Positions 1 to 64,000 of a stretch of 64,000 nucleotides of DNA are shown one piece after another; the stretch's first letter is position 1, and each line of letters begins with the position of its first letter. This DNA is from Bilabrum cf. latius (taxonomy: Eukaryota). The stretch spans positions 620,001-684,000 of the forward strand of contig OZ237739.1 of assembly GCA_965178125.1 (NCBI GenBank). Direction: 5' to 3'. A model generated the notes under the pieces. That model saw only the letters and a program-made list of their open reading frames with translations. It searched no databases and was not told the DNA's origin. Position numbers and translations under genes: made by a program.

Positions 1-822
1 TCGCCTGAAATCCAAATCGCCCCGCCAAACATCTCTCTCTCTCCCCGTCCTCCTACTATCCACGTCGACCCGAAGACCGTGCCTCGCATCTTGCCTCGCA
101 TCGCGCTGATCGTAGTGCCATGGCTACCGGGAAGGTGGACCATACGGCCCCCAGGATTCGCCAACGTAACCCCCCTTGCGGCCCGCTTCGGACGACGCAG
201 AGGCGCCAAGTTGTGCAGGCGGGAGCGGTCGTCCGTGTCCCGCTTCTTGCACTGACCAGGCCTGACCGGTGGCAGAGCTTGAAGTAGAGGGCTGTACAGC
301 GGCTGTTTGCTGCTGGGCCTGCCCCGTGAGAAAGGCCATCGGCTGCTGGCGGCGAAGGGACGTGGCACCTGCGGGCACGCCAAGAAAGTCTGTGACGAGG
401 CGCGGTGGAGCGCGCGTGATCGCGCCTGCGCCGCCTCCTAGGACCCACGTGGCTGTAGAAAATGCAGACGCTTCCCTCGGTGGGGCACGCTGCGAGTCGG
501 AATGGTTCGCAGCTCGCTGCGTAACAGCAGACGTCGCAGATGACGCGACGGAAGGTGGCGACGAATCTCGCGATTCCGAAGCGACTGGTACCGACCCAAC
601 TGTTTCCGGTAGGTTTTGCTTCGATCTGGCAGTTGCACGATCACTTCTGGAGACGATTGAGGCTTGAGGATTTGGCACGACCACGGAGTCAACCTGCATA
701 TTCGTCGAATCATCTGATCCCGCCCGGTCCCGGTCACGGGACTACGTCTTTAACCTTTCCCGTGCAGCAGCACCCGAGCTCCCTGCTCCCAACTCGCCTT
801 GAGTTAATGCTGTGCCGGACAT
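1..822 (-). CDS. Hypothetical Ser/Ala/Arg-rich low-complexity protein, 3' end runs off the window
   Basis: ATG at 822, open to the window edge when TAGs (~742 and 124) are read as Gln; includes ORF 124..699. No recognisable domain. Confidence 0.45.
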
Positions 823-1254
823 CGTCGACTGATGCACGCCTGCGGTATGGCGGGTGCCCAGAACACATCAAGTCAAGCCGCTGAATGCAAATGGATCCAT
901 TTCGAATTCGAGCACATGTTCGATCAATAACAAACCCAACTGCTCGCGCGAAACAATTACACTAGGAGCGGCCAGTGTAGGACTCCTATGGGAGTAGGAA
1001 CTGTCTCACGCTTCGCCGCTTGAGCTCCAAGCAGTCTGACGGCTGATTAAGTGAGTATTTAAAACAGTTAGGCGATAATCTGAGGGCGAGAGGGCCTCTA
1101 GGCGATAGATTTCGTATAAGGTGAGAGGAAGAAGTCATCAGATCCGATCGAATCATTGTGAGCATGAGGCATTATTTGCTGTCGCCCATGAAGAAATTTG
1201 ATTGACTCAGATACTAAGTATTGCAGCAGGCATCATTGCTTTACGCCAGCCGCT

Positions 1255-2811
1255 ATGCCCAGGAAAAGTAGGTCTTCAATTGCTTCGGAAGATGAAAGCG
1301 ACAATGATTCTGGCGACAGTTTGAGTGACGTGATAGAAGATGTGGAAGATATTACCAGCGCAAGCCGGGGAGCCTTGCGGAAGGGTGGAGCCGACGGCGT
1401 TCAAATAGGCTCAATCCTGCAGAGAGAGCAAGCGTTAGCATCGCGAGAGGCCGGCCTAACACATCGCGAAAAGGCGCTGGCATCTCGTGAAGCCGCCCTG
1501 GCTCGCGCCCAGGCTGCCATGAAGCTGCGGGAGAAATCACTGCTTGAGCTATTGCAACAGAAGGACCTGGTTCTGTCACCTTCCAGAAAGCGTAAGCTGG
1601 TGGATGATGTTGAACTTGTCGACGGGACTGCCTTATTCGGTACGGATGATGAGGATAGCAGCTACGGTGCGGTGTCGTCGCCAAGTGCAGCCTCAGCAGC
1701 AGCCCGCGGTGGCAGCGGGAGAGGTCGAGGGCGAGGTCGAGGCCGAGGGCGAGGTCGCGGTAGGGGAAGAGGGCGTGGTGGAGCAATTGCACCCACCGCC
1801 AGCCTTGGTAGCAGCGAGGGTAGCCCGCAGCCAGCTGAAGCCAGCACCAAGCTGGGCAGCAGCCGGGGACGAGGGAGGGGCAGGGGCAGAGGCAGGGGTC
1901 GCGGGCGAGGAGTCGCATCTAGTGCGTCTAGCGGGTCCACGAAATCGGCAACACCCATGTCGCCCAGGGCCAAGAGCCCTGGCCAGGCCAAGGGTGGGCC
2001 GAGGTCGCCTGCGGCAGTCGCAGGCAGGAAACGAAGCCGGGGCACGAGCTCAGCCTCCGCATCAACGAAAGCAGTTGCGCAGTAGCAGTCGTTCCAAGAG
2101 GCATCGTCCCAGCCCAGCACTAGGCGTCGGAGGGGGGAGGCAGGCGCGATCGATGCCGCGGCCAAGTCAGCACCACCTCCTGCAGTCCTCACAGCCATTC
2201 AGGGCTATGTGCCCACCAAGTACTCCATGATGCTCCTCGAGCAGGTGCTCCGGGGCGAGCCCGTGTACTGGCTCTCCGACCACGACAACCGAGTAGTGGT
2301 TGAGGTGCCTCGCAAATCCACGAACAGTCTGGACCGGAAGAACAAGGCAGTTGCATGCAGGGAGGCCTCGGGAGACGGGTGGCTGGTGAGCACGTTTAGC
2401 CGCATGTACCAGCTGGGTAAGAACGAGGGCGACGGCATGGCCACCCGGGAACAAACGGACCAACTGAAAGAAATGTTCTGGAAGGGTCGCAAGGGCAAGA
2501 CCGACTTCGGCTCTATGCTGCAGCATTACTCCACAAGCGAGCCGAATGCACTCACTGCATCAGCGGCTGCGTCGGCCAGTAGCAGCAGCAGCTCGTCCTC
2601 TTCTGCGAAGAAGACGAAGTCTGCTTCTGTCGCCAAGGCTGCCAGGGCCGCCAAGGCCTCCAAGAGTCCATCTCGGGCCAAGTCGGGCAGGGCTACTAGT
2701 GCAGCAGATCATGAGACGGGGAGGGCGGGGCAGTTCTCTCCAGCAGCCGCCATGGAGGCGGCCGTGCAGGCGGTCAAAGAGGCAGCTGCAAGCACCCCGT
2801 TGAGCAGCTGA
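1255..2811 (+). CDS. Novel-domain family protein 1 (~518 aa): acidic N-terminus, coiled coil, KRK motif, GR dipeptide tracts, one C-terminal copy of the GxPVYW...ACR...WLVSTF domain
   Basis: ORFs 1198..2085 and 2209..2811 are in one frame joined by a single TAG in CAG-TAG-CAG context; ATG at 1255 (MPRKSR), ends TGA. Confidence 0.85.
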
Positions 2812-2930: not shown

Positions 2931-5900
2931 TCAAAACTCCAGACTGGCTGAATCGGGCCGCGCACCTGATTCACTAGCACCCTCGGCAATCGAACCTAGG
3001 CAGGGCTCAAGAGCAGCACCAGGGTCAGAGGCGTTGCTGCTGCGTGCTGGTGAGCCGGCTCTAACATTAGTAGCTTCCCAGCATGCTGCTCCCAGTGATT
3101 GTAGCGCAGACTGCCCGCCTGCCATCTCAAACGCCGCAACGCTTCCCGGTGATGAAGAAGAGGCCGATGAAGATGATGATTGCAGTGGTGATACATTCCA
3201 GTACAGACCTCTCTCAGAGGCCTTGGAGCGGCCCAGATCTCGAGTCGCGGCCCCACCAGCGGTCGCTGTGCTGGTGGTACTCTGCTTTCCCACCACCGGA
3301 GTGGCAGCTCCATGCCCACCTGCTGCATGCGCAGCATCTTTCACTTCATCGCTAGCAAGGTCAGGGCTATCACTCGTGACAGCAGCCCTCATAGGTTCGG
3401 TATCCTTCACAAACATGCGCTCCAGGATCATCGCGGTGACCCGGCTGCCGCCACTCGCGCGGTTGGCCCACAGAAGATGCCGCATGCTTGTCACGAGGAC
3501 CAGCAACTTCTTTCCTTCTGGATTTGAATGATAGCACGCCAGCGGTTGGCCGAGCTGCGTGCGCGTCAACTCCTTAACCCTCCGTCGAGCCTTGCTCTGT
3601 TCAGAGACGTGCCAGAACACGGGGGTACCCTGTATCATCTGGTCAGCCACATGTATGCACCTCTACTGCAAGTCATGCGTCAGGTTGAATGCAGGGGGGC
3701 CGCTATCGAGGACTCGTGCTATCTCGAGTAAAGAGCGCCTTCTTTTCCTGCCGACAATCCAGTTGAATCCCCTTGTGCGGCCACGGCTGTCCACGCTTGC
3801 TGTGCGGCGGGCTGTGGTAGTCCTGGTCGATTGAACCCCCTTTGCTCCAACGACTGACGTTGGAGACCTGGGAATTTCGCTGCCTGGAAATTTCAGAGCG
3901 GCAGCAGGTCGACCTCCACCTTCGTTGCCAGAGAGGGCTGGTGGGCGACGCTGCTGTGTTTCGATTACGACGCTCTCGCATGACTCTCGAGGCCGCACGC
4001 TCGAACTGCAGTCATCTCCTGTAGCAAGCTTCTTCTCTGTGAAACAGATCGGGTCTGATACTTCCGTAGTTTGTCGGGTATACTTGAATCGAACGCTTCC
4101 AAACCTGGGACGGCTAGGGCTAAAGTAGTCGTGATAAGGCTCGTTGCTGGTAGCCCAGAAGCGCTTCTCTATGATGGCCCATGGAACAACTGACTCGCCC
4201 TTCAGCTCATTTATGTTGCGAAACATCTCAGTGAATGTACCGACGACCCACTCGTCAGATATTTCGCACCAGCATGCGATGGGACTGACCACCGCATCGT
4301 TCCACCAGTGCAGCGAGCGGGGTCGGACGGTGGCAACGTCTCCAGTATCGGGGTCCATTGCAACACAGGGTGCACCGTCCGCAATAAGTGCTGCAAGGAC
4401 ATCGGGCAGCTTTGAGCTTCCTTGGGATAGGGTCTCTCGCAGCCCACTGGTGGTGCCGGCAGTGCTGCTGCAGCCCACTGTCAGCACCTCCTTCCGCAGC
4501 CTGGACTACAAGGAGCCCGGCTGTCCAATATTGCTCGCTGGAGATACCAGCTGCACGACCCGCTTAAACGTAGGCAAGTCGATGCGTTCGTCCCCAAACG
4601 CGGCACAGATAGAGCCCACTGTGCTTACCAGCCAGTGCTGTCTCTGCTCACTCAAGCAAGCGAACCGAACGGGAGCTTCGCCTTCAGCAACTTTGGAAAA
4701 CCACGCAGCTTCCCCATTCCGCAAGCACACCAGCGGAGCACCATGCAGGATAGACTTCGCGGTTGCGGCGGAATTTATGTGTAGATCGTTCATGTCTGCA
4801 CAGACCATCGCATATGCCGTCAACGTTGGCTGCCCGTGCGGCAGGCCTGCAGTGACACTGCCTCTTGGTTCGATGGGATCTCTGTAGTAAATCTTACGAA
4901 TGCGATCAAGGCCACGTGAAACACATGAACTCATCAGCTGAAGGTTGGACAGCCGTTCAAGCTCAGGGAAGCTGCTGACGACCCAGCGGTGCGTGATCGG
5001 GCACCGGCAAGCGACCGGAGCCGACTCGGTCATCAGGGCACATGACTCATCGATCGAATTCGCAGGAACTTCAGCCCAGCTTCGGATGCTTGCGTGATAT
5101 TGCATCAGCTTGCAGCCTCGTCCGGCACGTGCCGCCGTTTCTACTGCTGCCAACACTGCGTTGCTGCTGGTGGTCCTTGCGGTGGCCGCCCACTGCCAGC
5201 TCGTGACCAGCCCTCTGATCTGTGTAAACTTGAGTGACACCGGCTCACCTTTGGGGGCTGAGTACAGCCGATGAATGTGCGTGGCAACGAGGAGGGTTCC
5301 TTCCGCAGACGTGATGTGCGTGCCGCTCTCGAAGATGGTCGACAGCGGACCGCGGACCCACTCGTGCTCGTCCTGGTCGGATGGAATGCGGCACGCCACC
5401 ACAAGGCCTGGCGGCAGTGGGAAGTCCAGCTGCCCGAACCGAACAACCTCTAAGCCTCCATCCGGCAGGCACGCAAAGCAGCGCTCCCCCCGCGCTATCG
5501 CTGCCCCCATCGAGAGGATGTCCTCTCGCGACTGCACGGCTCTTGCTTCGTCTGGAGGAGGGGGGAGTGCGCCGGGGCCGATGGGCTTGAGAGCAGACTC
5601 GAGCAGATTGAATGCAGCGGACGGAACGAACGCTTCGTCTGGCCACTCGGGCTTGCATTTCCCGTAGAGATCCACCACTGTGTTCCAGGCTTGGTGGCAG
5701 TCCGTCTTTGAAGCAGCCTCGCCCATGCTGGCAAACGAGGAGACGATCCACGCAGCGGTCTCGTGGGAAAAACAAGCAATTCGTCGAAGCAGCTTGGCGG
5801 GAGCTATGCCCCACTCGATGGAGAATTTTGGCACCATCTTCGCCACGGGCGGGCCTGCTTGGTCCCCCCCGCCAGCACCAGAGGCGGCCGCGGATGAGCC

Positions 5901-6059
5901 ACCGGCCGAGGCGTCCCGAGCAGGCTCCAGCCAATAGGCTGGGCGCCCTTGTGCAAGTAATGCCATGCATAGTTTCGCCCTTTCGCAAGATACTTCCGGG
6001 TGCTCTTCTGTAACCGAGGGCTAGGCACGCAGCAGTGCGCGGGTTGCTCGATCTTGCAT
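2931..6059 (-). CDS. Novel-domain family protein 2 (>=1042 aa) with six tandem divergent domain copies; 5' end uncertain
   Basis: ORFs 6021..6224, 4506..5966, 3663..4487 and 2931..3650 share a frame and are separated only by TAG (6021, 4506, 3663); ends TGA at 2931. The frame is open to 6242; first ATG at 6059, and an upstream exon is possible. Confidence 0.8.
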
Positions 6060-7244
6060 GCCAGCTTGCTTGCTTCTTGCCTGCTTCCATGAACTTCCTG
6101 GCTGAACAGGGCTTTCTACAGTCGCATAAAAATCACTGCAATCGTCTCCACAGCCTGCTAAGGTGATTTTCCGGGGTTCGTCAACAGACGAGCTGCTCGG
6201 GGTGGACGCACCTGCGATGCGCAATACCAGGCAATCACGTGTTCAGATCACGTTTTTAACCCAGTCATCGAGTTTAAATCGGATGAAATATGCAGGGAAT
6301 GGTTTCATCAAAGGTAGAACTTGCTGTTCAAGTCGGCTCTGCCGGCCTGAAAATATTGGAGCAGCTGCTCGCCCTGAGCGACGGGTACTCATGGCGAATC
6401 CAGGTATCGCTACAGACGCAATGCTCACCGTTCGGTTGCTTCTCCTTGTATCGGAAAGTGGTTCTTTGCTGCTTACTCCCGGTTCCGGCTCGCGTCATGA
6501 CATCAGTCGAGCTGTTCCTGGCGCTCACGCTCTCGCTTCGATCCTGCTCATATTCCGAAAAATGAGCCGTAGGCGCGGGAAGCAGCGAAGTGATCTGTTG
6601 AATCGATGAATCATCTAATAGATTGTGGAGCTTTCGCTACGTTGAAGCTCGGGTAGTTGTTGTTGAGGCGCTTGAAGACTTCATTTGCAGCCGTAGATCT
6701 GGAAAGTGTCAAATTATCGGGGTTAGCCCTCTATTTCCGTCGATTTTAGCGAGCTATCCGACTTGTGTATATTGTAACGCAAGAAATATGACAAGGGGTG
6801 ATTAAGCCGAGCAATGTTGTGCCAGCAGCCGCTCTGAACTGTGCGTCGTTGCGACCAATCCATTTGGATTGTGATGAAACGAAGTTGAAGAATGAAATTG
6901 CTCTCTTTACAATTCTTGCTTCTGCCGAGCATAGTAGAGCTAATCGAGGGCTTCTCTCTGTAGATCCCTGTAATAATATCGTGCAAATATTTCTTCGACA
7001 AGCAGACGCATGCAAATAGTCGCATGTGTGGCGCTTGCGGCAATGCTAGCGGAAGTTTGTGGTAATGCTGTGTAGAGAGGAGTATCATCTAACCTTTTCC
7101 CCTAGTCTCGGAACAATGCTCAGTACTACCGAAAGTTGCAGCATGTGAGACGTGGAAGTGTGGTCATGAGTCGTTCAGGCTGAGTATCTCACGGCGTATT
7201 CGTGGCTTCAAGCCCAATCAGCCTCTGTTACACACGCCCAACAC

Positions 7245-10200
7245 TTGATTCAATGTGATGTATCTATTTTTATACCGCAGACTTGTCCATTGCCCTTTGA
7301 GGTTGTTGGCGCCGCGAGGATAGCTAATTCTATCGCTGGCTTGCCTGGAAACGCTTTCCGTGCAGGAGATGCCGCCGGACGGACTGTTTCTGCAATCGGT
7401 GACATTAGTGGCGATGGCATCGGCGACATTGCAATCGGCGTCCCGTATTTTGACGGGCTCGAAGTCGACGAAGGAGCTGTATATCTTTTTCGGATGCATA
7501 GTAATGCCTCGCTGGACAGTTTTGATGTGATTAAAGAGAACCATTTCGGCTTCAATAGGTCACTCCAGGCTGGAGAATTGTTTGGAAGATCTCTTGGGGT
7601 CCTGGCGCAGTCGCAAGGCGAGCAGCCGGACCTCCCGCGTCTTCTCGTTTGCAGCCGAAGCTTCACCGACACGTCTGGGTCTGTCACCGGCTCGGTGTAC
7701 GTGCTCCGCCTGAATCGGACAGAAACTGGGCGAGTTTCTTCCTACATTCAATGGAGCCATGGACAAGGAGGCATGCCCTGGGGCGCTCTTGAAGACGGTG
7801 GCTACTTCGGGTCTGCAGTGGCCCAGATCGGTGACGTAAACTCGGATGGGCTGCAAGACGTGGCAGTAGGGGCGGAGAAGAACCTCGGGAACGACGGTGC
7901 GGTTTTCATTGCGCTACTAGCAGCCAATGATACTATCGTTGGCTTTCGGTGGGTCTCTAGGGCAGCCGGCGGCGGGCTGTCTGTGCCCTTCACCACGATC
8001 TCTAACCTCGGCAGTGCAATCTCAGGGGCGCCACGTTCGCCGTGTCTGGGCGGAACTTCCCCGTGCAGCCAGCTGATCGTTGGAGCAGAGGAATCTGGCA
8101 TCGGTGGGCACAACCGTGGTGCCATCGTGCTGGTCCAGCTGGGTCACACGGGCTCGATGCAGGACAGCTTCAGCGGCATCCAGGTGCTGAATTCGTCCGT
8201 GGTGGCGTCAGGCACAGGGGGTCTGCCTGGTGACATTCTCTCGAATGAGGACCGGTTTGGAGGCGCTGTTTCATTCGCAGGGGATTTGGATGGCGATGGC
8301 ACACAAGAGGTGCTTGTGGGCGCACACCTTGCCGCCGTTGACAGCCCCTTCGACGGCGTTGTTTTCATCCTTAGCGTGCACATGAACAACTTTACCGTAC
8401 ACTCCACGCGCCAGCTAGATCGTTCTGTCATCAACGCGTCGACGGGTGTTTCGTTTCCGCCTGGAATACGCTTCGGACGGTCGCTGGACATACTTGCGGT
8501 GCCGGCCCCAAGCGGAGGAGACCCTGCGTGCCAGGTCGTGGTTGTGGCCGGGACACCAAAGACAAACGACAACGGTGTCGACTCTGGTGGCCTAGTTCTT
8601 GTTTCAATCACTGCAGACCAAGGTACTGTGTACCCGTCGCCATCTCCCTCACAAAGCCCCAGCCCGAGTCCCTCCCCTGCCGCAGCCGGGCAGCCTGTCC
8701 GAATCGTCAAGCCGGGCACTGGAGCCACGGGGGACAACTCGCCCAATCTGGACTCTGATGACGGATATGGCAGAGATGTTGCTGGTCTGGGCGACGTGGA
8801 TATGGACGGGATCCCTGATATCGCGGTAGGGGCTGCAGATGACGACGATGGCGCTGAGAATCAGGGTGCAGTATACGTGCTGTTCATGAGAACGAACGGA
8901 ACTGTCAAAGGGTAGCAGAAGATAAGCGCTCTGGAGGGAGGTATTCGAATGGAGAATCAGAGCGATGCCAAATTTGGCATGGCGCTGTCTTCTTTTCGAT
9001 AGCCGCGTGGTGATGCACCTGACGAGCCTAGGCTGATTGTTGGCGCCAGCGAGATGCTGGACGGTGGAGTCAGCACGGGTAGATTCTGGGTTCTTCGGAT
9101 CTCACAAAGTGGCGCAGTTTCCAACCAAGTGCTCAGCGAGCCTGGTGTTTATGATCTTGAGCAGGATGATGGGTTTGGCATCGGGGTGTGTGGCGACCTC
9201 GGCGACATCGACGGTGACGGTCTGAAAGACATAGTTGTTGGAGCGAATGGTGTAAGCGATCGCGTGGACCGAGGAGGCGAAGTTTTCCTGGTTTTCTTGC
9301 GGGCAAACGACACTGCAAAGGGGCACACGAGCCTTCTTGAAGCCGCTGGGTGGGCTGACCACTCCGTCTTTCGGATCGGCGGTGGCTTGGCTGCTCTGCC
9401 AAGCAAACGAGCTGGGTCGGCTGCTCGTATTGCTTTTGGCTCAGGAAACATCAAGTCCATTTTCATCCACCATCTTACCGTGAACGGCGGCTTCTCGGAC
9501 CCTGCGTCTAGAGTTGGTGTGAGCTATGGGATTGCGCCGGAACGAGGAGCAGACGCTAATCGGTTTGGCCGGTCGATCGCAAATGGGGGTGATCTAGACG
9601 GGGACGGTGAGGAGGATCTCATTGTTGGCGCGCGGCGTGATAAAGTTAGCGTTCAATACGCAGGGGCGGTCTTTGTCCTCTTCTTGGAAGCAAATGCTAC
9701 CATGACAAGGATCAAGTAGTATTGCGTGATTGATGCGACACACCCACTGTTTGGTGTCCACGTTGACGTCAACAGCGAGTTTGGCTTTGTTGCGTCTGCG
9801 GGGGACTTGGATCAAGATGGAAGGAACGACTTGGTGGTAGGCGGCTCATTGGATGCGCCAAGAAACCATACTTCAACAGGTTCTATCTTGGTTGTCTTCA
9901 TGGGTGGCCCGGGAGCGAGCGCCTCACCAAGCCCAAGCCCGAGCCCGACGCCAAGCCCCACAGCGTCAATTACTCCATCTTCATCTCCCTCCAGCTCTCC
10001 AGCACTAGCCGGTACCATAACAAAGGCCCGTCATGTTGTTGTGAACGGGACGAGCAGCTCTGGGCTTAACATCGAGTCCGGTGATCATTTCGGATACAGC
10101 ATGCAGGCCCTTGGTGACCTGAACGGCGATGGGTGGCTTGACGTGGCAGTCGGGGCTCCGAACGATGACGATGGGGGCAGTAAGGTGGGTGCTATTTACG

Positions 10201-16200: not shown

Positions 16201-17462
16201 CGCGAGAGGCTAAGGCAATAGCCTCTACCCGACCACCTGAGCAGCTTCCTCGCACCTTGCAGCGCCGGTCTAGCCGCCGGCAGCTTCGAGATGCCGGCTT
16301 TGACACTCACATGACTGCTGCAGAACGGCGCTCTATGCTCGGACAGTATGGTGCATCGGCTAGCCTCCTCTAGCGCGGCTTGCAGGCAGCTAATACGAAG
16401 ACTCGAGGCAGTGTGGCATCCCCTCCTTCCCGGGCTCCGTACGCCAAGCGACAAGGAGTGCAGAGGTCAGCAACCCAATCGCCTCGCACGAGACGGCGTT
16501 CTCAGCCTGCCTTCTTTCTTGACGCTGCTGGTTCCGACGATGCCAGCCCAGTGGGTGTCAATGTCGCTGATCTTGCATCGTGGAAGAATACCAAGCAAGG
16601 AAGTGTCTTGAGCGGCGAAACTTCCTGCCCTGCGGTCAATCATACCGGCCTAGTCAGGACAGCCTCCAGCAATCCTTCCAATGAAGAGTCTGGCGATACA
16701 ATTGGTGATAACGTTGGCGTGGCAGTGACGCGGTCAAGTTCAGAACATGATTTCGAAGACCCGAATGATGGAGATTCAGCCCAGGACGACCGGCAGTTCG
16801 CAGGGGCCATCGATATGACCGGCAGCAGGGACTACCGTTCCAATGCCGACTAGTATCAGTCTAGCAGTGATGGTTCTAGTAGCATCTCTGGACATTACCA
16901 TGCAGAGCAGGGCTCGAGACAGTCCAGTGCCCGGAGGTCTAGAGCTGGGTCTGACCCAGGCTTCATGATCGACACGGTGGCATGTGGGTCGGAGGAGCTT
17001 GTCGTTGGTGGCTCGTTGCATCGGTCGCCACGAGTGGTCCTCATGGAGAGCCCGCGCGATGACATGACAACTACAACGAGGAGCGAGTGGATGTGTGAGC
17101 CTGACTAGACCGGCGTTGCTGCGCCATATGGCGCTGTGGCTTCAAGTGCATCGCCGGGTTTGGCCTCGACTCGGTCTGGCACAAGCAGATCCAAGCCAGT
17201 ATCCGAGGTGTAGGAGTAGAGCGATTCCAGTGGGATGGTAGCCAATCACTCGGGCCCTAGAGGCAGTGCTGCCCTTGCTGCGATACGCAAGGCTGCCGAG
17301 GTGGGTCACGACACAGAATCAGTGGCTGGTTCTGACGGCGGCTCTGGAGCACACCAAGCTGTGGCTGCTGGTTCTTTGGAGGGGATAGATGATGATGAGG
17401 TCGCTCAACTGATATTGGCGGCTGCAGCGGCGGGCGTTTCGCTTGACGAAGACAGTAGCTGA
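7245..17462 (+). CDS. Giant FG-GAP repeat (integrin-alpha beta-propeller-like) type I membrane protein, ~3,400 aa; true start probably in an upstream exon
   Basis: One continuous frame with ~27 TAG and no TAA/TGA until TGA at 17460-17462. Many FG..GDLDGDG..D.AVGA motifs, Ser-Pro linkers, TM helix LFVGIISFIAVTFVCVGGAFGVLWLI (~15621-15698) and a long Ser/Arg-rich tail. Possible splice acceptor at 7280 (ttttataccgcag). Confidence 0.88.
12686..13028 (+). repeat. Coding hexamer-based low-complexity repeat (AGC-CCG / AGC-TCC / AGC-ACC) encoding a Ser/Pro/Thr mucin-like linker
   Basis: Directly visible ccagc/ccgagc runs; translates as SPSSSASPSTSASPSS in the FG-GAP frame. Confidence 0.9.
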
Positions 17463-20600: not shown

Positions 20601-20880
20601 ATGAAATATCACCGCTATTCTAGCCAAATGACCTCGGGTTTGCACCCATAGGACTGGTCTGATCGTCAGCAGGTTGCATCATGTTAGAAGCACGCAAATT
20701 GGACCCAGCGCTTGAACTGCTCTGACGCACTCCAGATCCAAGCGGAGCCGAATGCAACGATTCTGCTACAGCTTCTCCATCATTTTGCGGCGATTCACCC
20801 TCAATCACGTCATCTCTGTCCGTGTAACGACTTAGTACGGCGTTTATCTCGGCATCCTCATCAAAATTACAGCCATCCAT
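17623..20880 (-). CDS. Novel-domain family protein 3 (~1085 aa): N-terminal coiled coil, KRRR motif, four domain copies
   Basis: ATG at 20880 (MDGCNFDEDAE); ~20 in-frame TAGs join ORFs 20620..20880, 19753..20043, 19144..19362, 18739..18969 and 17629..18207; ends GGG-Q-Q-TGA at 17623. Confidence 0.85.
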
Positions 20881-26937: not shown

Positions 26938-26978
26938 TCAATCTTCATGCTTATCGTTTTCAATCAAGACGACTTCGC

Positions 26979-27009
<31 letters not shown>

Positions 27010-53600: not shown

Positions 53601-53798
53601 CAATCAGCTCGCAATCCGCTGTAGGCCGCGTCACCCTCTAACCGTGAGCAAGACAAGATGGCCTTCTTTGCTGCGGGTGGGAGGCCGAAGGGCCTGCGCA
53701 GGGCAGGGAGTGGCGCTGGAGGGTTCCGACACAAGTTCGGACCAAGCCGGGCAAGAGAGGTGGGCGAGACACCCAGCAAGAAGCCCGGTGTTATTTAA
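38652..53798 (+). CDS. Giant cell-surface protein (~5,048 aa): signal peptide, 6.3 x 496-aa Gly-rich repeats, GCxDxxAxNY..DDGSC repeats, coiled coil, Ig-like and Cys-rich modules, C-terminal multi-TM region
   Basis: ORF 38622..48563 continues in frame through 11 TAGs (48561 to 53622) via ORFs 48786, 49107, 49401, 49740, 50244, 50508 and 51273 to TAA at 53796-53798. Hydrophobic N-terminus (ILYSLFAIVLSTHTGAWA); motifs DECGVCNGDGSSC and CGNDVCEVGESPNTCPSDC; about 7-8 hydrophobic helices. Confidence 0.88.
38979..48308 (+). repeat. Tandem array of a 1,488-bp coding unit, six full copies plus ~400 bp
   Basis: gcatctggtgcagggtatgcatcc begins at 38979, 40467, 41955, 43443, 44931, 46419 and 47907; units differ at only a handful of bases. 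Confidence 0.97.
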
Positions 53799-54586
53799 GT
53801 TGCATGTTTGTGAATTTGGTATGAGATTGCTGCAGTAGTATCTTTCAGTAATGATCGGATGACATCATCCGGAAACTGGATGGGTCCGCCGGCGAGTCGT
53901 CACACGTTGAGAGCCACCAACTCTTGCCTTCTGCCTCTAGAACTTGGCCCTGTCACTGCCATTCTTCTACTGTGATTCGCCGGCATAAAATGCCAGCCGA
54001 GCCCCTGCCGATAGCGGGTTTTCAGGCTTGTCCATCGCGCTCAAATCTTCCAAGGCACCCGGTGCTGCAAGGCCAGCTTTGCCTGGCTTGATCAAGTCTT
54101 TGCTACGAGTCTGCTTATATATCATCATTGCAACAAAGAGGGTGACAGCAATACGACGTTTCGCTTCAACTTATTTGAGTATGTACCGTGAGATACGTAC
54201 TACTTTTGTCGACTAGACTTGTATTCTATTATTCTAGGACCCCGCAGAGCCTGCCTATCCGGATCCTTTGGAATCGGAGGCAAGCTCGGCTCGACGCAGA
54301 GAAATCGGATAACTTCCCACCACACGTCGAGTCGGTCTACCCCGGTCGAGTCGAAGCTTCAGGTGACCGGGAGCGCCAATCACACCGGTATAGAGGCCAG
54401 CACTGTTCTTGTGTATAGTGTGGCGGTACTTGCAGAATCAAAGGAGAGGGCAAGAACAGTCTACGTTGCCAAGGGCAGGGCCCATCATCATTGAGAACAA
54501 GGAACAGTTTTGCAAGCCGGCACTACAACGTCATGGCGTACAGGGCTGGAGTGCGTTTTGCGTTCTCCCCCGAGCGTATACCACAT

Positions 54587-56254
54587 TCACTCATAGGACA
54601 GCTTGGGCAAGTCCGCAAACGCAGGATTAGGCTTTTCGCAGCAGCTCCTCAGCGCCTGCTTGCCTGCCTCCTCGAGCCCCAGCCCGTAGAACGGCTTGAA
54701 CAGCTCTGTGGCGTGCGGGTGGGCCGGGCCGTACTTTCGCATGACTACGCGCATCACCAGTCGCCGGAGGGCCACCTCCAGCTCGTCTTCATCGATGGTA
54801 ATGGGCTTGTTCACGGCGGAACCCCGGCATTTCGGAGTGGGCTTCCCGTGCATGCTGAACCAGTCCGTGTACTTGCCGTAGTCGCAACCGTTCACGCGCC
54901 CCTTCGCTGCCCCTCTCTTGGCCTCTTGCGCGTTGCCAGGCGCTCCATGCAGCCCCTCGTACTCCAAATTAGAGCTCCCAGCGAAGCCCTGGAAGGCGAT
55001 CTGGTGAAAGTCCCGGGGGAAGACCTCCAGGACGCCAGAGCCCTTCTGCATGAAGATGCAGTTGGCGAGGCCGCTGCCGTGCGCGCCCACGAAAATGTCC
55101 GTATTTGCGAGCCATTCCACGCCAGTGGCAAGGCTCACCTGCTCGAACCTTCCGAACTCTGGGTGATCAATGTACTGCACGTCGAAGCCCAGCCGGTTGA
55201 AGACCTTCTCAATCGTGTGCTCGTTTTTGAAGACGCGCCCGTGCGATGACTTTTGTCTACGCCTAATGATCATGGCTCTGAGTGCCCTGGTAGGCGGGGG
55301 CAGCAGCCGCACGTTGAAATGCTTGTACGCAGCATCCCGGAAGATGTCGGCGTCTTCGAAATCAGAAAACACGCCGCCTTCTGTCGGTGACATGGACCGG
55401 CCCATCATGTATAGGCGCTCGAAGCAGACGCGGTTCTTGCCCTTCGGCATCACCAATCTGCGGAAGGATTCGCTCTGGCTCCCGCCCCAGGGCATGACAA
55501 AGGAGGGAGGGTCGGGCACGACAGTCTCTTCGCGCGGCGCCGTTCGGTTCCGCACGACGTCCAGGGAGTGCTTCAGTAGCGGGCCTGTGATGAACTTCCA
55601 CATGATCCCAAGATTCTGCATCTAATTGAATCCAAAGTTGGCACCGACGATAGAACGAACGGGAGGGTAGTCGCTTGGGTTTAGGGCTGAGTGAAGGTAG
55701 CCCATGTGCCCCTCGACGAAGTGGGCCAGGTGTCCCTCAAATGGACCCGCCGAAAGCCAGGTCCCGTCTCCATGAAGTGGCATTTTTTGGTTCGGTTCGT
55801 GATTTCTCGGAACGTAGGTAGCTTCGGGGGCCTTCATGTGTGCCTCGGGGTCGGGAACCGGTTGATCTATCCAGTTCCAAGCCCAGCCAAAGCCGTTGTA
55901 CTTCTCCGGCCTCTGGGGCCTCCAATTTTTAGGCATCACACGTGGACTTTCTGGTTTTCGAAGCAACATGATCTTTGTGCCGCCTCCCCAGCACACATTG
56001 TTGAGCATCGCCCACGTGGTCCCGGTGCCATTGAAGTATACAGACGTCCCATTGGCAGGATCAGGCTGGTTCTTGTAGAAGCGCCCAATCTCATGGGAAG
56101 TATCTGTCATGACGGATAACTTCCTGGAACCAGCTGCAGGTAGTACACCCCTTGAGGGTAGCAAGAATGCGCACAAGCATGTGAACCAGAGTACCCTTTC
56201 TCTCATCGTCCTGCTGCCATCTCGTCCAATTGTTCGGTACTGTTCAATTCCCAT
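54587..56254 (-). CDS. Glycosyltransferase family 61 (DUF563 / EOGT-like) protein, ~555 aa
   Basis: GT61 motif DIFVGAHGSGLANCIFMQKGSGVLEVFP and HLAHF; N-terminal hydrophobic segment; ORFs 55622..56254 and 54587..55621 abut across one TAG; ends TGA. Confidence 0.88.
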
Positions 56255-56503
56255 GTATCAAAATAGACACGCCCGTCACCCGGCTGTAAGAAGATATCTG
56301 GGAGTTCTTTATGTGTGAAGTCACAAATGCCGTTCCGACCGGTTTTTCTTGTTTTTCAACATTTTGTAATGTGCGATTAAAAACGGACCGAAAATAGCTC
56401 TACTGATGGACTACTGGAACGATACCAGGCTAGACGCTCCCTGTCAAACCAGGCAATTCAACCCTTGTAATTGTCTCATAATACTGGCAGCGACTTGTTG
56501 ATC

Positions 56504-58204
56504 ATGCCGCCGAAAAGCTAGACCGAGAAATCGAAAAAAGGAGAATTATCATAGCTTGTTACAATTGGACTCATAGCTGGCTTGACACTGACTTTATGCT
56601 GGGTGATTGGCGTCTTGATCCGTGGAAATACTTCAAACAGGCATCATCACCATTGGCCAACGGGTCTTGATCCATAGGACAAACCGAATGAGACTGAAGA
56701 CCAGCTCGGCGGCCTTACTTCAGTCCAAGACGAGCCGGGAGATGAATGGACATGGGACTTTTTGCTGCAGGAGTTTTGCAAGCACTATACTGGAATACAC
56801 TAGGGTGTGCAAGCCAGGTAGGATTGTGTTCAGATTACCCGACAGCAGGTGGAGCAGCTGCGATCGGAGGGCCATCGTGCAGGTGGGAAAGTCTCCAATG
56901 TTCACGGCAATCCCAGCGGTGGAAACAGTAATTCCAGGTCTAGCACTTCGGGCGAAAGAGTGGCAGCGATGCCCGGACAGGAACTGTCCTTTCTTCGCCC
57001 TGGTCGCTTCAGCGCCTTGCGGGACGAGCTGGAAAGGATCCTACTTGAAAATACCCTCTTGGAGAGCGCGCGGTTCACCGACAGGTCGGTTACGCAGCTA
57101 TTCGGAAGAATCCACCCCCTGTCGCTTGGCCTCTCGGTGGACCAGCGCACGAGGCGGCCGCTTGACGTTATCTATCAGCAGTAGCCATTCCACTGGCAGT
57201 GGCACATCGACCAGCACCTGCAGAAGGTGCAGCGTCCCATTCGGATAATTTTGGACCCCAACTCCCAGCGGTACCAGAACAACGCCATTATCGCCGTAAA
57301 TCACCTCACCTTCAAGCACTCGGATCGGTACTTCACGGAATAGGCCAAGCGAGGCAACACCAACATCGCGGCGCTGCACCAGGGGGATATCACGATATCG
57401 CAGTCGTACGGGTGGTACAAGAAGACCAAGTTTGTGCTGAGGAATCACTTCCCCTCTCGCTCCGTGGCGGTCAAGAAGGGTATGGCGCTAGACAGGATGT
57501 ACGTCCTCCCACTGGGATCTCCAACCCACGACTCTATGAGCTTCGTGAACCGGGGAGAGTTCGGCAGGGTCCTTCCAGCGAGCAAACGCAAGCACCTGTG
57601 CAATTTTATTGGTAGTTTGCTGCACCACGAAACCAGAATGGCGCTTGGCAAGTCCCTGCATGCGGCGGAGATGGGGCCTGACCCATCCAAGGCCAAGTAC
57701 GAGAAATGGGGGACTGATGGGGGCGTGAAATGCTTTACTTACTACTCGGGCGAATGGAAGAACAAGAAGCAGATGCAGCCGTGGGAGTACAGGGCCATGA
57801 TTTCCAATAGCGCATTCACGTTCGTGCCACCGGGGAGGGGCCCCTCGAGTTTCCGGTTGACCGAGGCATTGGAGCTGGGCTCCATCCCCATCATCAGTGA
57901 TATTGACAACTTCAATTTACCGTACGGGGAGCACCCGTTGCCCACCATCAAGGTCAGCGAGTGGGGCACCCTGCCGCCTGTACTTGTGAAGATGTATTCG
58001 GAGCACATGGAGGAGCTGGACGTCCTGCAGGAGAGAGTGTTCGCCTGGTGGCACGCATGGAAGCAAACTTACTAGTAGAATCTAGCTTGTCTCGTGGAAC
58101 GGGACATAATGGCTTCTCCAGGTGCTCGTCAGGACTGCCTGTCGCCCGGTCAGTTTGCAGGTTACTCACTTTCTCCAAAGGACCTGACCAAGTTCAAGAA
58201 ATAA
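56504..58204 (+). CDS. Exostosin / GT47-family glycosyltransferase, type II membrane protein, ~566 aa
   Basis: Motif YRAMISNSAFTFVPPGRGPSSFRLTEALELGSIPIISD. With TAG=Gln the frame opens from ATG 56504 with TM anchor LVTIGLIAGLTLTLCWVIGVLI; 9 TAGs; ends TAA at 58202-58204. Confidence 0.88.
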
Positions 58205-58766
58205 GCTAACGATTTCCTTTGTTCAACGTGTATGTTTCACGCATGGATTTAAAGCGGCCGAGTTGAACAGGCCTTCTGCCAAGTTGCGGTGCGGGTGTCG
58301 ACCAAATTGGCGTGCTCCAAACACCAAATTCTGTCTAGAGGTCTGGTACATGCAGAAGCCAACGCAGATTCTATGCTATGCAATCTCGTGGAATATTGAC
58401 GATGAGCGCTAGTCTCATTACCGGACTCATCGGACTGGTGTTGATGTTGGAGTGGGAGCGCTGGACGAGCTCGCGTGGGTTCCGCTGGCGGTCGCAACCG
58501 GCGGAGGGTGCGACCAACGGATTGCTGTGTTCAGGGTAAGGGTTGGGCTCGGGTCGTTTCGGAGGGCAGTGTGGTGCACGTGCTCTTTCCTGTCCCGGTC
58601 ACGCACTCCGGTCAAGGGATAGTGTGCGGTAGGACTGTAGAAACAAGACTGTGGCGACCACAGCCTGCGACGCTTCCAATCAGGAAGCTCCAAGGCAGTC
58701 GGAAGTGCTTCTGAATGTCGATTCAAAGTAAGCATCCATTCATCTGTTCAGTTTCAAATCGATTTG

Positions 58767-61076
58767 TCAGATCTCTGTCCCAGCAGCAGCAAACTCAGTA
58801 CCCGCGCCAGACATCGAAGCCAAGGTGTATGTTCGCCCGGTGAAGCCACCCGCGGCTTGGATAGCCTCTGAGGCTCCCCCACCCAGCACGCAGAGGGGTA
58901 AGCAATACAGAGTCTTCGCATTGGATCGAACTGGCAGCACAGCAACGAAGTCGCCAGCAGCAAAGCCGGGATGCTGGTCCTGGTCATGCCTGATTGTGGC
59001 TGAAGTCAGTGAGGACCACGCCCCGGAGCTGATGCCCGACCACAACTTCTCCTAACCCGACACCGTTTTTGCGGAAGCAGCTCCGGTAGCGCTTCCAACA
59101 CCGGCCATCGCCTCGAGGACGGCATTTTCTGCCTCCAGCAACCCAGCCTCCAGGGCAACCTCAGCCGGCGCCGCGCCAGCGGAACCTCCCGCGGGAGACG
59201 CTTCCCCCTGCTGTTGCCGCCGCAAGCCAGCAGGAAGGCCGGGCATGACCACCCTGCGGTTCGTGTCGGTGCGGCCCTGCCACAGGGGCGCCTGCCCGTC
59301 CGTGCCTCCACGCCGGCGGCTCTCGGATTCAACGAGCACAACCTGCACCTGGCCGATGCACTCGGCGAACCTTCGCGAAGACCCCTCAAGGAACGTTCGG
59401 ATAAGTTCCTCCAGCCTCCTGTTCTTCACGTCCTCGGGCACGTCGTCCTTGAGTTTCCTCGCGGCATGCGTCCTGTCCCGCAGGCTGTACGCGAATAGGA
59501 AGCCCTGGTCGAACCTCTCCCTCTGCATTACCTCCACCGTCTGCCGGTGGTCTGACTCGGATTCGCCGCAGAAGCCCGCGATGACGTCGGTGCTGAGAGC
59601 CACGCCCGGGATGGCCGCTCTGGCCTCGTCACACAGCTGCTGGAACGTCTCACGGGTGTAGAAGCGTCGCATCCTGTGCAGCACCTCCGAGCTGCCAGAC
59701 TGTAGAGGCATGTGCAGCGAGTTGCACACGTTGTCATTCTGTTTCACCGCCTCGAGCACCGCCCGTGGAAAGTCCTTCGGGTGCGGAGACGTGAAACGGA
59801 CTCGCATCTCGGGCGCCGCGCGAGCCACCCTGTCCAGCAGCTCAGCGAATCGCACGCCACCGCCGCCGCCGCGCAGCCGAAACATGTTCCCGAAGCCCTT
59901 CGCTGTCTCATACCCAGCCCCTGCACCTGCCACCGCTTCCCACTTTGCGTCCGAAGCCGCGCCAGAGTCGTGGTAGCTGTTCACGTTCTGACCCAGCAGC
60001 ACCACCTCCTTGTAGCCTCGCGCCGCCAGTGACCGAACCTCGCCCTCGATGGTTGCAACCGGCCGGCTGCGCTCCCTCCCTCGCGTGAACGGCACGACGC
60101 AGAAGGAACACATGTTGTTGCACCCCCGCGAAATGGACACGAATGACGAAACCGCGCCGTCGCCCGCCCTCACCGGCGCAATGTCCGCATATGTCTCAGA
60201 CAGGGACAGCTGCGTGTTGCTGGCACGTGGATCCTCGGCACCCTGCCTGCGGCCTTCACGAACCTTCTGCACCAGTGCAGGGAGGTCTCTATACGCGTCT
60301 GGCCCGGCAATCAAGTCAACGGCTCCCTCTTGCTCCAGCAGCTTGTCCTTCAGCCGTTCTGCCATGCAGCCGAGGACACCCACCACCGCCTCGTCTCCGC
60401 CCCGCGGAGGAGGCATTGGCGCCTTCTTTCCGCCGGACCTTGGAGCAGGGGCAGCGGATGCAGGTAGCCCTTGCTTGATCCCAATGCGCTGCCTTCGCTT
60501 GATGCCCTTGAAGTCCGCCAAACGAGCACGCACGCGCTGCTCTGCGTTCTCGCGAATGGCACACGTATTCACCAAAATTACATCTGCCTAAGACGGCTCA
60601 TCTACTTCCTCGTATCCTGCTCCAAGCAAAATCGATCTAACGATTTCAGAGTCGCTGACATTCATCTAGCACCCGTACGTCTAGATGTAAAATGCAAGCT
60701 ACTCGGCATTCATGTTTTGCTTCAAGGCATCCGGCGCTGACAGGGTTGCATCTGAAGCATCTATTGGATCGAGTAGAGCCTTAGCGGACGGTGACGGTGT
60801 TGTACTTGCTACCTGTGGCGAAGAGGCTGAGCCGCCGCTTCTTGTGCCTGGTTGAGAGAAATCTACAAGTGACATTCCATCCCTAGGGATTGTTCGTCGC
60901 TTCCGACGAGCCTTTTTAGTATTGCTATCTACAGGGCTGCTCGCACTACGGTCTCGCGTCATACTTGCCCCGCCAGATGCGTATCTTGTCATTCCCCCAA
61001 CACACACAAGGTGCCCACGCAGTCCTGCATACAGGCGTTTACAAGACCATTTCATGCGCTAGGATGCTGGTCTCAT
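58767..61076 (-). CDS. CDK5RAP1: MiaB/CDK5RAP1-type tRNA methylthiotransferase (radical SAM), probably mitochondrial, ~769 aa
   Basis: UPF0004 domain [16 protein letters not shown]...NTCAIRENAE...GCMAERL; radical SAM GCNNMCSFCVVPFTRGRERSR; EVVLLGQNVNSY; TRAM domain completed after the TAG at 59052 (AGDFVAV...TLYCLPL); Arg-rich N-terminal extension (start 61076 or 61055); ends TGA. Confidence 0.93.
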
Positions 61077-61232
61077 TCCTGAATATAGAGATAGTTGTAT
61101 TTAATTTGAGAGGATATGTCCCTGCCACCCGCTATAGCCTACACTAGAAGCATGGTGCAGGGAATCTGCAGTTGCAGTGCACGACTCTGCAATCGAGGCG
61201 GCCAAAATTATACTTTGAACAGTTGAACTAGA

Positions 61233-61924
61233 ATGTCGGAAGCCACAATTCAATCAGTATTGCTCGAATTTGTGGATGAGTAAGAGAATAAGACGACCGG
61301 TGCGTTCAATTCGCGAATCGGATCACTGTAGATTGTGAAACATGCACCAGTCACAATTTCGCAGGCTACCGGGGTGCCAAGGAATTGTTGTCGGGAATTG
61401 CTTCGGGTTGCCGCTTATCAGGGGTGTGTCACGAACTCGTTATTAGTGCTTGCAGTACGTTCGGGGTTTCATGGTGAAGCTGTGGTTGATGTCTCTAGTG
61501 ATTCCTTTCGCAGCCGTGAAGCCAACCAGCGATGAGGAGATTATCAAGTGTGTCGAGACAAGATTAGCGCATGCATTTTATCTGGCATCAGAGCTAGTGA
61601 GTTATTCCTTTGCCTAACGTTAGAGGGGCAACAATTGTTGAAACTGCTGTGTGTTGCACAACTTAATCGCTTCGCGGTTCGCAGAGCGAGCGATTGCCAA
61701 CTGGCTCGACAGAGGCGGCCGTCGCATTCTACGAGAAAGTGACAATTGTGTATGGTGCGCGGTCACCGCTAGTAATTGGAGTTGTGGCGTCGGTAGAGTC
61801 GGATGTTGGTGCAATCCTCGAGGCATTGCCGAAAATCAAGGCGGTGCTTGAGCCAGCCGGAGCCATGGTTGAATCGTCCGGAGAATAGCAGCAAGAGGAA
61901 ATTGGCATGGTAGCGGGGCCGTGA
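61233..61924 (+). CDS. LAMTOR3: Ragulator subunit LAMTOR3 (MP1)-like protein, ~142 aa; exons 61233-61279, 61365-61423, 61514-61596, 61685-61924
   Basis: Three GT..GCAG introns (85, 90, 88 nt) give MSEATIQSVLLEFVDELPGCQGIVVGNCFGLPLIRA...RLAHAFYLASELSERLPTGSTEAAVAFYEKVTIVYGARSPLVIGVVASVESDVGAILEALPKIKAVLEP, which matches the LAMTOR3 roadblock pattern as I recall it. One TAG in a Gln run before the TGA. Confidence 0.72.
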
Positions 61925-62011
61925 GTCATGCCGTTGTTGGGATGAACCGAGCTTGAAGCGGACCTGCGCTTGTTATCCAGAACATCTGTATCCATCACAC
62001 CACCAATCACT

Positions 62012-64000
62012 TCACTTTGAAAGCTTGGACTGCACTGCCAGTCCAGAAGGCTGTTCATTGCTCCACTTCCCTGTGCGTCGATTCACGAACACGACGGTGC
62101 CATCAGTGCCAGCCACCCGCTCCCACTCCGAGCCCTCCCCAGGGCCTGCACCGGCACCGGCACCTCCGCCGGCAGCCGTGCCACTGCCTCCAGCGGCACG
62201 TACCATACCGTCAACCCGCTGTACTTTGGGTGTACGACCTCCTTCTACCCCGCGGTCGCGCCGCTTTCCCGAACCTTTGCCGCCCCCATCGTCGTCCCCG
62301 CCTGCTCCACCTCGCCGTGCCACTATTCCTACTCCTGCTGCTCCCAGGTCAGCGTCCAGTCTGGCCTTAGCCTTGGCACCCGCCGCAAACTGGGCTTTCT
62401 TCTCCTATCGCAGTGCCCGAAGTCTCTTTTCCCTGGCCTGCGCCGCCGCTCTGCTGCTGCCCGTCTCCTGCTGCCGGCTCGCCTCTTCCGCTCGCCTGAG
62501 CCGAGCCGCCCTCTCCTCCTCCGCCAGCGTCCTTCTAGCTCCGAGGAGACGGCCGGAGCCTCCAAGTGCCATGCGAGAGTAGGTTTGGATGGTGCCACTG
62601 CCAGTGAACAATGGGCTGAACTTGTGCCTTGCTGCATGCCTGCGCGTGATGACGCCCATTTTGAGCAGCTTGCTGGCATCCGTGGTCCACCGGGGCATAG
62701 TCCATCGGCTTTCGCCAGTTTCTGCGCAGTAGTAGAAGTGCGACAGATGGTCCTCAGCTGTATCACCGGTATCGATGCCGGTGAACTGCTGCTATGAATC
62801 GTCCTCGGGCTGATGCGGAACGAGCTCCCAAGCACTCGGGTCCTTCTCTGCATCGTCGCCGCCGAACACGGGAGGCTCCTTGGAATACTCGGCCCGCTGC
62901 TCCCGCTTACCACGGAAGGAAGACGATGAAGCGGAAGACACATTCCGGTCAGACAGGGTCTGATCTGCCCCTGCTCCGCTGGCTGGCTCGGGCTCCAGGC
63001 GGTCCGTCTCACCAACCCTGGGATCGCTGCCATCATCAGCGTCCCCATCAAAGCCGCCCTCCTCGTCCTCGTCTTCGCCGCTACCCCCGTTGCCTGTTTC
63101 GTCCTCGAATCGAAGTCGAGCCAGCAGGAACTCGCCCCTTCGGTTGAACGCGCCGCCGGGCGGAGGGCGAGGCAAACGGCCTCGCCACACACCGGCACAC
63201 TCCCACCCTCCGCCAGTCACAGCTCCGTTCCCCGTGACCACACCCATGAGCCTAAGAGTGTCCCAGTACCTGCTAACCGATGGAAGCACCCATACCGTCC
63301 TCTTACTCCTCGGGTTGAAGAAGTACTCCTGCCCGTCCTTGGTGTACAGCTTGTCCCACTCCTCCGGTAGGCCTTCCTCCTCCACCGTGTGCGCAAGTCT
63401 GCGGATGGCGTCGCGAACGCGGTACCCTCGCCACACCCTCGCAAAATCTTTTGCGATGTTGCTGCGCCGGACTTCTTCGAATGCCTCCAGCGCCGCAGCA
63501 GAGTCATCCGCAGCGCGCTGCTCCTGCCTCTTGAGATACGCCTCAAACCCGTCATAGTCCTTCCCAGCGGCCTGCAAGACGTAAGACAGGAGGTTCACGG
63601 CATGCTGATTCCTCGGTTCTATATCGATGGCATCCAAGAGAACCCGCTCAGCCTGCCAGTGCTCCCCCTTGAGTGCAGATAGCAGCGCCCCCCAGCTCAT
63701 TAGCGCGACTTGGTCGTGCTTGTCGTGGTCATAGGCGTGCTGGAAGAAGCCCAGCTCAGCCATGGCAAAAACTGACAGATTGCGAGACACGCTCCGCTGG
63801 CCAGGTTTTTCCCTCAGGACATCTTCGGCGGACCGGGCACGCTCGATCATCACCTCGATTACGTCGAAGGACTCTTCCTGGGTCACCATGAGCAGGAGCG
63901 CAAAGCCGTACAGGATCACTGGTTCGTCTGGGCCTCGTCGGGTCATCCAGTCCAGCAGCCCCACGTACATCTGCCTTGCCCTAGCCAGGTCACGCTTGAT
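62012..64000 (-). CDS. WW-domain / IQ-motif / TPR-like protein, 5' end outside the window
   Basis: WW LPEEWDKLYTKDGQEYFFNPRSKRTVWVLP plus two degenerate WW-like segments; IQ-like FARVWRGYRVR; ORFs 62792..63970, 62405..62698 and 62012..62323 joined by TAGs; ends TGA. Confidence 0.82.

Follow-up and report, generated by a model that had tools for sequence, protein, structure and literature searches.

Codes in which UAA and UAG both mean glutamine (UAR = Gln; NCBI table 6) occur in many ciliates, in hexamitin diplomonads, and in some ulvophytes. The two codons nearly always change meaning together, and the cases in which UAG alone has changed amount to a handful (PMC5304391 and PMC11687900). In the fornicate Iotanema spirale, UAG encodes glutamine and UAA and UGA remain stops; UAA closes 104 of 119 genes and UGA the other 15 (PMC5304391). 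UAG alone has also become glutamine in Protocruzia tuzeti and in two phyllopharyngean ciliate lineages, and it means serine in Scotinosphaera and leucine in a rhizarian (PMC11687900). Phages with TAG recoded to glutamine ("code 15") have been described as well (PMC9523058). Here we analyzed the genetic code of a 64-kb stretch of DNA (referred to below as the window), positions 620,001 to 684,000 of the forward strand of contig OZ237739.1 from the assembly GCA_965178125.1, labelled Bilabrum cf. latius. An earlier inspection of the letters alone (the sequence-only reading) had proposed that UAG means glutamine in this DNA and that UAA and UGA are stops. It had also listed the known UAG-only glutamine codes, correctly but incompletely, since Protocruzia tuzeti and the phyllopharyngean lineages were not named. 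We conclude, with a probability of roughly 0.9, that TAG encodes glutamine, with TGA and TAA as stops, in the nuclear code of a GC-rich, intron-poor eukaryote. The earlier proposal is upheld by homolog columns, by near-orthologs, by a CAG/TAG variant, by a column test, by TAGs left unchanged in transcript-like contigs, and by the absence of in-frame TAA.

The window resembles Iotanema in that UAG alone is reassigned, to glutamine, and in that UAA and UGA stay stops and UAG is not needed as a terminator. Unlike Iotanema, whose genes end mainly in UAA, the window has mainly TGA at its gene ends. Iotanema is an anaerobic gut flagellate studied through its transcriptome, whereas the window is genomic DNA, has a GC content of 0.55 to 0.68, and carries a gene for a CDK5RAP1-type enzyme (some database records of CDK5RAP1-type homologs name a mitochondrial tRNA methylthiotransferase). 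The UAG-only ciliates share the code pattern, and PMC11687900 likewise argues that a CUA anticodon frees UAG from UAA. The window differs from them as a 64-kb multi-gene contig with GT..AG introns of 85 to 90 nucleotides (nt) and a GC content of 0.58. Ciliates are usually AT-rich and have very short introns. Like the UAR = Gln codes, the code of the window turns a stop codon over to glutamine, presumably via a mutated tRNA-Gln; unlike them, it does not use TAA as a sense codon. The code-15 phages have the same codon table, but the window has spliceosomal introns and eukaryotic genes. In a search of a limited set of papers that did not cover supplements, no report was found of a GC-rich nonciliate in which UAG encodes glutamine. 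These data support the window as a further case of a known, rare kind of code. UAG-only cases are natural experiments on how the ribosome and eRF1 tell UAA from UAG, and another lineage, apparently not related to those known, would contribute a GC-rich, TGA-preferring case that has code-sharing relatives and both genomic and transcript data.

Under the standard code, the long frames of the window are broken, and reading through TAG yields a set of very long ones. Thirteen long frames, counted from the first ATG and 518 to 5,050 codons in length, contain 17,757 codons, among them 123 TAG, 0 TAA, and 0 TGA. Seven more TAGs lie in the frame at 23661-24416 (4 TAG), in the open frame at 1-867 (2 TAG), and in a LAMTOR3-like gene (1 TAG). 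The total of 130 equals the roughly 130 TAGs that the sequence-only reading had counted in frames split only by TAG. TAG makes up about 0.7% of codons and, outside the gene with 1,488-bp repeats, about 19% of all glutamine-type codons. Four of the genes with in-frame TAG are supported by homology: a MiaB/CDK5RAP1-type tRNA methylthiotransferase gene (58767-61100, minus strand; Pfam UPF0004 and Radical_SAM), with 6 TAG and a TGA end; an RXYLT1_C/GT47-like glycosyltransferase gene identified by Pfam (56471-58204, plus strand), with 9 TAG and a TAA end; a GT61 glycosyltransferase gene (54587-56257, minus strand), with a TGA end and 1 TAG (55622-55624) upstream of the catalytic domain; and a gene for an FG-GAP (integrin-alpha-like) membrane protein (7170-17462, plus strand; 3,430 codons; 14 Pfam FG-GAP repeats), with 27 TAG and a TGA end. 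The earlier statement that the last frame contains 27 TAG and no TAA or TGA was reproduced. Within the frames, Pfam domains flank TAGs on both sides. TAG also stands in glutamine runs where the sequence-only reading had placed it, in CAG-TAG-CAG at 2080-2088 and in H-Q-TAG-Q-Q-D-Q at 26348-26328 of the minus strand. The eukaryotic genes (LAMTOR3-like, WW-domain, and CDK5RAP1-type) and the spliced GT..AG introns identify the window as nuclear DNA. These data show that TAG is an ordinary sense codon in the window.

Tests of whether this exceeds chance gave mixed results. A codon-usage model, trained on stop-free pieces only, was weak, since 64-codon windows scored a mean of 2.4 in frame (standard deviation, 6.1) and -8.3 off frame (standard deviation, 5.7). 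It did discriminate, however: where one frame was the best of six with a score of at least 10, the high-scoring windows contained 37 TAG, 2 TGA, and 0 TAA in frame; over all six frames, the stop triplets number 1,712 TGA, 984 TAG, and 425 TAA. The summed length of open reading frames (ORFs) under each single-stop reassignment did not discriminate, and TGA read-through likewise gave long frames, because the GC-rich 1,488-bp repeats also read as open frames in antisense. A count of stops with an open stretch of 60 codons on either side (69 TAG, 79 TGA, and 10 TAA, compared with 50.65, 88.5, and 22.75, respectively, in second-order Markov simulations) also failed to discriminate. Both of these crude tests failed because GC-rich DNA holds long open antisense frames. 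With flanks of at least 100 and outside the repeats, 22 TAGs bridged open stretches, versus 6 and 1 for the other two stops. Among codons adjoining TAG, 7.9% are CAR, versus 3.6% overall and 5.3% of those adjoining CAR, which is weak support only.

For the comparison of residues, window proteins were translated with X at each TAG. In the MiaB protein, codon 145 (60666-60668, minus strand) is a TAG at the glutamine of the GCQMN motif. An alignment of 120 CDK5RAP1 homologs, the best of which is 57% identical, contains Q in this column in 113 cases, A in 5, P in 1, and a gap in 1, confirming the earlier placement of a TAG at the GCQMN position. Three further MiaB TAGs are outside the aligned regions. 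In the RXYLT1-like protein, TAGs 238 and 291 correspond to Q in P0127 and P0181, sequences of relatives that are 85 to 87% identical. TAG 535 corresponds to Q in P0181, and the P0127 ORF stops exactly there; TAG 536 corresponds to W in P0181. More distant homologs contain Q and S at site 238, L and A at site 291, Q, Q, and L at site 535, and A, L, and E at site 536. In a piece of an FG-GAP ortholog (P0143; 84% identity), the residue aligned with TAG 2810 is Q and that aligned with TAG 2944 is L. A relative's fragment, P0189, has K at TAG 381 of a gene at 17623-20895 (minus strand; 1,090 codons, 20 TAG, TGA end). The near-ortholog residues, from relatives that are 63 to 87% identical, are thus Q, Q, Q, Q, W, L, and K at seven TAG sites of the window, and the codons of the three non-glutamine residues are one base from TAG. 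When the four super-repeats of the FG-GAP protein were aligned, Q was the commonest residue in the paralog columns (6 of 25 cells). The paralog columns cited by the sequence-only reading (LRQP/FRxP/LRxP, GTVAHQ/GTVAGx, and VIQL/ILxL) were recovered in the same alignment.

In a column test based on BLOSUM62, every window codon was scored against its aligned column, with columns drawn from five sources: MiaB, RXYLT1, the FG-GAP ortholog, the FG-GAP paralogs, and a new domain (19 copies). The 33 TAG columns gave scores of 31.8 for Q, 16.0 for E, and 2.0 for S. The test recovered 59 of the 61 sense codons. When codons were resampled so as to match the TAG columns in source, genuine glutamine codons were called Q in 989 of 1,000 draws, whereas 1,000 draws for each of E, K, S, L, R, D, A, Y, and W produced no Q call. 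The Q-minus-E margin found for TAG, 15.8, lies next to the glutamine median of 15.7. This finding supports the view that the TAG columns correspond to glutamine.

A 144-nt variant contig spanning 57188-57331 was present in runs of two studies, at a depth of 19.1 of 55.5 in one run and 2 of 6 in the other, or about half as deep as the main form. It has 12 differences from the window, all in the RXYLT1-like frame. Nine of them are synonymous, two replace L or I by M (L>M and I>M), and the last turns CAG into TAG at codon 269 (57275-57277, plus strand; CAG in the window), where P0127, P0128, and P0129 contain Q. The contig is a second haplotype or a close paralog. Since CAG>TAG falls on a Q-conserved site amid mostly synonymous changes, TAG and CAG alternate at a conserved glutamine site within a frame under purifying selection. 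These data show that TAG and CAG can replace each other, both among alleles and among related organisms. The L>M and I>M changes match the 85 to 87% identical relatives (P0127/P0181).

The window sequence is present in eight runs of four studies. Contigs from one run per study (X1, X5, X6, and X7) were aligned to 54000-64000. The long, DNA-like contigs of X1 and X5, the latter from an independent study, showed no difference at any TAG. The contigs of X6 and X7 were transcript-like, with ends at gene boundaries (54213-56166, 56433-58511, and 58725-61134) and depths that differed several-fold between genes. In contigs of both X6 and X7, three GT..AG introns of 85, 90, and 88 nt were spliced out of the LAMTOR3/MAPKSP1-like gene (61233-61924, plus strand; exons 61233-61279, 61365-61422, 61513-61596, and 61685-61924), so that spliced contigs of two studies bear out the lower end of the 85 to 165 nt given for introns by the sequence-only reading. 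All 16 TAGs of the GT61, RXYLT1-like, and MiaB genes were kept in X6, with 0 differences and 0 gaps. A check for unedited TAG in mRNA had been suggested earlier, and the TAGs of these three genes were unchanged in the spliced, transcript-like contigs, which excludes editing, splicing, and sequencing error. These contigs, whose RNA label is a guess, show that TAG is kept in mature mRNA and is neither edited nor spliced out.

An independent count of gene ends gave 13 TGA and 2 TAA among 15, in agreement with the earlier count. At the CAA:CAG ratio of the window (160:473), about 42 in-frame TAAs would be expected in the 17,757 codons, and 0 were observed. The TAA-ended RXYLT1-like protein has its C terminus at the same residue as P0181, its 85% identical relative, and the homologs P0128 and P0129 end 13 to 28 residues from the end of the window protein. 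Reading through TAA lengthened long frames only marginally, from 5,059 to 5,093 codons and from 1,259 to 1,271 codons. The 64 codons past the TAA at 58202-58204 may be coding or noncoding at their score of -1.5 by the weak codon-usage model. The absence of in-frame TAA and the two TAA ends, one of them shared with P0181, support TAA, from a small sample, as a terminator and not a sense codon. TGA, which is never in frame and closes 13 of the 15 genes, is likewise supported as a terminator and not a sense codon.

Several observations weigh against this assignment, and some of them would suit other codes. At MiaB codon 140, a TAG stands in a column that contains E in 101 of the 120 homologs, K in 16, and Q in only 2, and the column at codon 171, also a TAG, is a mixture of D, E, and A. 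Three of the seven near-ortholog cells are not Q, and one of these is L. In the column test, the MiaB-only subset ranks E (7.8) slightly above Q (6.9), the 14 new-domain columns tie S (1.1) with Q (0.9), and strongly conserved columns with TAG number only a handful. Such columns are what one would look to if TAG encoded another residue, be it glutamate (known from some ciliates), serine (the Scotinosphaera case), or leucine (the case of the rhizarian exLh). Over all 33 columns, however, Q is ahead of E by 15.8 and of S by 29.8 half-bits, and true E, S, and L codons were never taken for Q. The GCQMN column, with Q in 113 of 120, and the exchange of CAG and TAG within the population and between relatives also argue against a different residue, and we consider this explanation highly improbable. 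As to the contigs, the RNA status of X6 and X7 is a guess from splicing and contig shape, no holder of the sequence being recorded as RNA, and contigs drop rare variants. TAG might in principle be untranslated in an organism with the standard code, through sequencing or assembly error, RNA editing, location in introns, or pseudogene decay with a C-to-T bias; CAG>TAG takes just one C-to-T transition, and no type of error or mutation is more common. This is scarcely credible. In 54000-64000, the contigs of four studies agree with the window at every TAG, the transcript-like contigs retain 16 TAGs and lack nothing but three GT..AG introns located elsewhere, and decay would also make TAA and TGA, none of which is in frame. 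The 9 synonymous changes among the 12 of the variant indicate that this frame, with its 9 TAGs, is under purifying selection, and TAG positions are conserved in relatives.

The assignment of TAA as a stop is drawn from only 15 gene ends, and specifically from 2 of them together with the TAA-free state of frames that are themselves delimited by TAA or TGA. TAA and TAG could both encode glutamine (the table 6 code), with TAA merely rare in a GC-rich genome and TGA the sole stop. Third positions do prefer G over A (the CAA:CAG ratio given above), TAA is at only 2 of 15 ends, and the gene of 5,059 codons has a TGA 5 codons after its TAA. We nevertheless regard this code as very unlikely: TAA is absent where about 42 were expected, read-through lengthens the two long frames by little, the TAA-ended RXYLT1-like protein stops where P0181 does and close to the ends of P0128 and P0129, and no TAA falls in windows of high coding score. 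TAG could also have a double meaning, as glutamine inside genes and as a terminator near the mRNA end, comparable to the context-dependent codes of Condylostoma and Blastocrithidia. The LAMTOR3-like gene has its single TAG 5 residues past the end of the Pfam domain, with the TGA 12 codons farther on, and this TAG could equally be a terminator. In the gene at 17623-20895, one TAG precedes the TGA by two codons. However, 0 of the 15 gene ends require TAG as a stop, and no Iotanema transcript terminates at UAG (PMC5304391). A double meaning is unlikely.

Given that TAG encodes glutamine in the window and TAA and TGA are stops, cytoplasmic ribosomes would insert glutamine at UAG, and translation would stop mostly at UGA and otherwise at UAA. 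By analogy with Iotanema, this would involve a tRNA-Gln that carries the anticodon CUA and probably arose by mutation from a copy of tRNA-Gln(CUG), and the CUA anticodon would pair with UAG and not with UAA (PMC5304391). The release factor eRF1 would have no affinity for UAG and would still recognize UAA and UGA. The predicted mechanism is the same as that given for Iotanema, namely, tRNA-Gln(CUA) together with an eRF1 that ignores UAG (PMC5304391). A tRNA scan found no tRNA genes in the 64-kb window or on a metagenome contig from a related organism (L001, described below), and an Rfam scan of the window gave no match. The window contains no eRF1 gene.

Relatives use the same code. ORF fragments of four relatives (P0127, P0143, P0188, and P0189), called under the standard code, end exactly at TAG positions of the window. 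P0143 ends right before TAG 3003 of the FG-GAP gene, and in the gene at 17623-20895, P0189 ends right before TAG 435 and P0188 right before TAG 1089. These relatives therefore have a standard stop triplet at these sites, most simply TAG. The Joint Genome Institute (JGI) metagenome contig L001 (11.4 kb; GC content, 0.53 to 0.58) encodes an RXYLT1-like protein that is 60% identical to that of the window. Three Pfam-supported frames of L001 contain 22 in-frame TAGs (3 in RXYLT1_C, 10 in SQS_PSY, and 9 in a beta-helix frame), and all three end in TGA. The fragments that end at TAG and the 22 TAGs of L001 therefore indicate that the code is common to a clade, comprising the relatives of 63 to 87% identity and the metagenome organism at 60%, and is not confined to one strain. 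In L001 (1366-10011), the RXYLT1-like gene adjoins an SQS_PSY-family gene and not a MiaB gene; gene order therefore differs from that of the window at 60% protein identity. Standard-code gene callers cut the genes of these organisms into fragments, as seen in the database fragments that end exactly at TAG, and annotation of such assemblies and metagenome bins needs the right codon table.

The named CDK5RAP1 homologs, at about 50% identity, are from oomycetes, diatoms, a chrysophyte, and green algae. In a FastTree phylogeny of this one gene (46 rows), the query fell outside the oomycetes, ochrophytes, and green algae and joined no well-supported clade. No ciliate was among the named sequences of the 120 best CDK5RAP1 hits, many of which are without names. 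The window contains no marker gene suited to placing the organism. The runs that contain the sequence have four different organism labels, and sister runs in two studies contain next to none of the sampled sequence words. There is a weak hint, and no proof, that the organism is an associate of the labelled material and not that material itself. The odds are about even, in our estimation, that the change of UAG to glutamine arose independently in a protist clade outside both the ciliates and the fornicates, one with GC-rich DNA and TGA as its terminator, with at least three lineages that share the code, have diverged to 60% protein identity, and include one from an environmental metagenome. If so, given the existing genomic DNA and transcript data, the predicted tRNA-Gln(CUA) and eRF1 change could be read directly from an assembly, for the first time in a UAG-only code outside the ciliates.

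Seven clustered genes of the window have in common a domain of about 100 residues that has no Pfam match. In addition to the gene at 17623-20895, these are the genes at 1192-2811 (plus strand; 539 codons, 1 TAG, which is the one inside CAG-TAG-CAG, TGA end), 2931-6242 (minus strand; 1,103 codons, 3 TAG, TGA end; five copies of the domain), 24486-26798 (minus strand; 770 codons, 9 TAG, one of them within the glutamine run described above, TGA end), 26938-30717 (minus strand; 1,259 codons, 12 TAG, TGA end), and 32848-37314 (minus strand; 1,488 codons, 19 TAG, TGA end) and the frame at 23661-24416 (plus strand; 251 codons, 4 TAG, TGA end; one copy). With a hidden Markov model (HMM) derived from window sequences, 19 copies were detected in six of the seven genes, and one further copy was found by eye. 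Most of these genes encode proteins with long linkers rich in Ser, Ala, and Gly and a coiled-coil-like stretch at the N terminus. AlphaFold predicts a confident alpha/beta fold from the alignment of the 19 copies (pLDDT, 92.5; pTM, 0.82). This model had no Foldseek match in PDB at an E value of 0.001 or less, and its best VIA-align Z score was 3.1. Within the gene at 26938-30717, a 90-bp tandem repeat (28944-29671; 8 units, 97% matches) encodes a 30-residue unit rich in Gly, Ser, Thr, and Gln.

The longest frame of the window is a tandem-repeat gene at 38619-53798 (plus strand; 5,059 codons, TAA end), with 11 TAG, all after 48563. It contains seven in-frame units of 1,488 bp (38979-48206) that are 99 to 100% identical and lift the GC content to 0.68. 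Its C-terminal part contains several membrane spans and gives a weak match of the TRP-channel type. A frame for a coiled-coil protein lies at 21235-23472 (plus strand; 745 codons, 3 TAG, TGA end). In the LAMTOR3-like gene, exon 4 matches Pfam PF08923 (MAPKK1_Int). This gene has three introns in less than 700 bp, whereas each of 13 long genes consists of one uninterrupted frame, so that introns seem to cluster in the short gene. It also had the highest contig depth of all in one run. A gene for a WW-domain protein (62012-64000, minus strand; 2 TAG, TGA end) is cut by the end of the window. Contigs of X1 and X7 contain a joint, 62164/63060, that skips 895 bases with non-intron ends (TC..CC) and a short side of 22 letters; it is probably a repeat-induced mis-join in a low-complexity part of the WW-domain gene.

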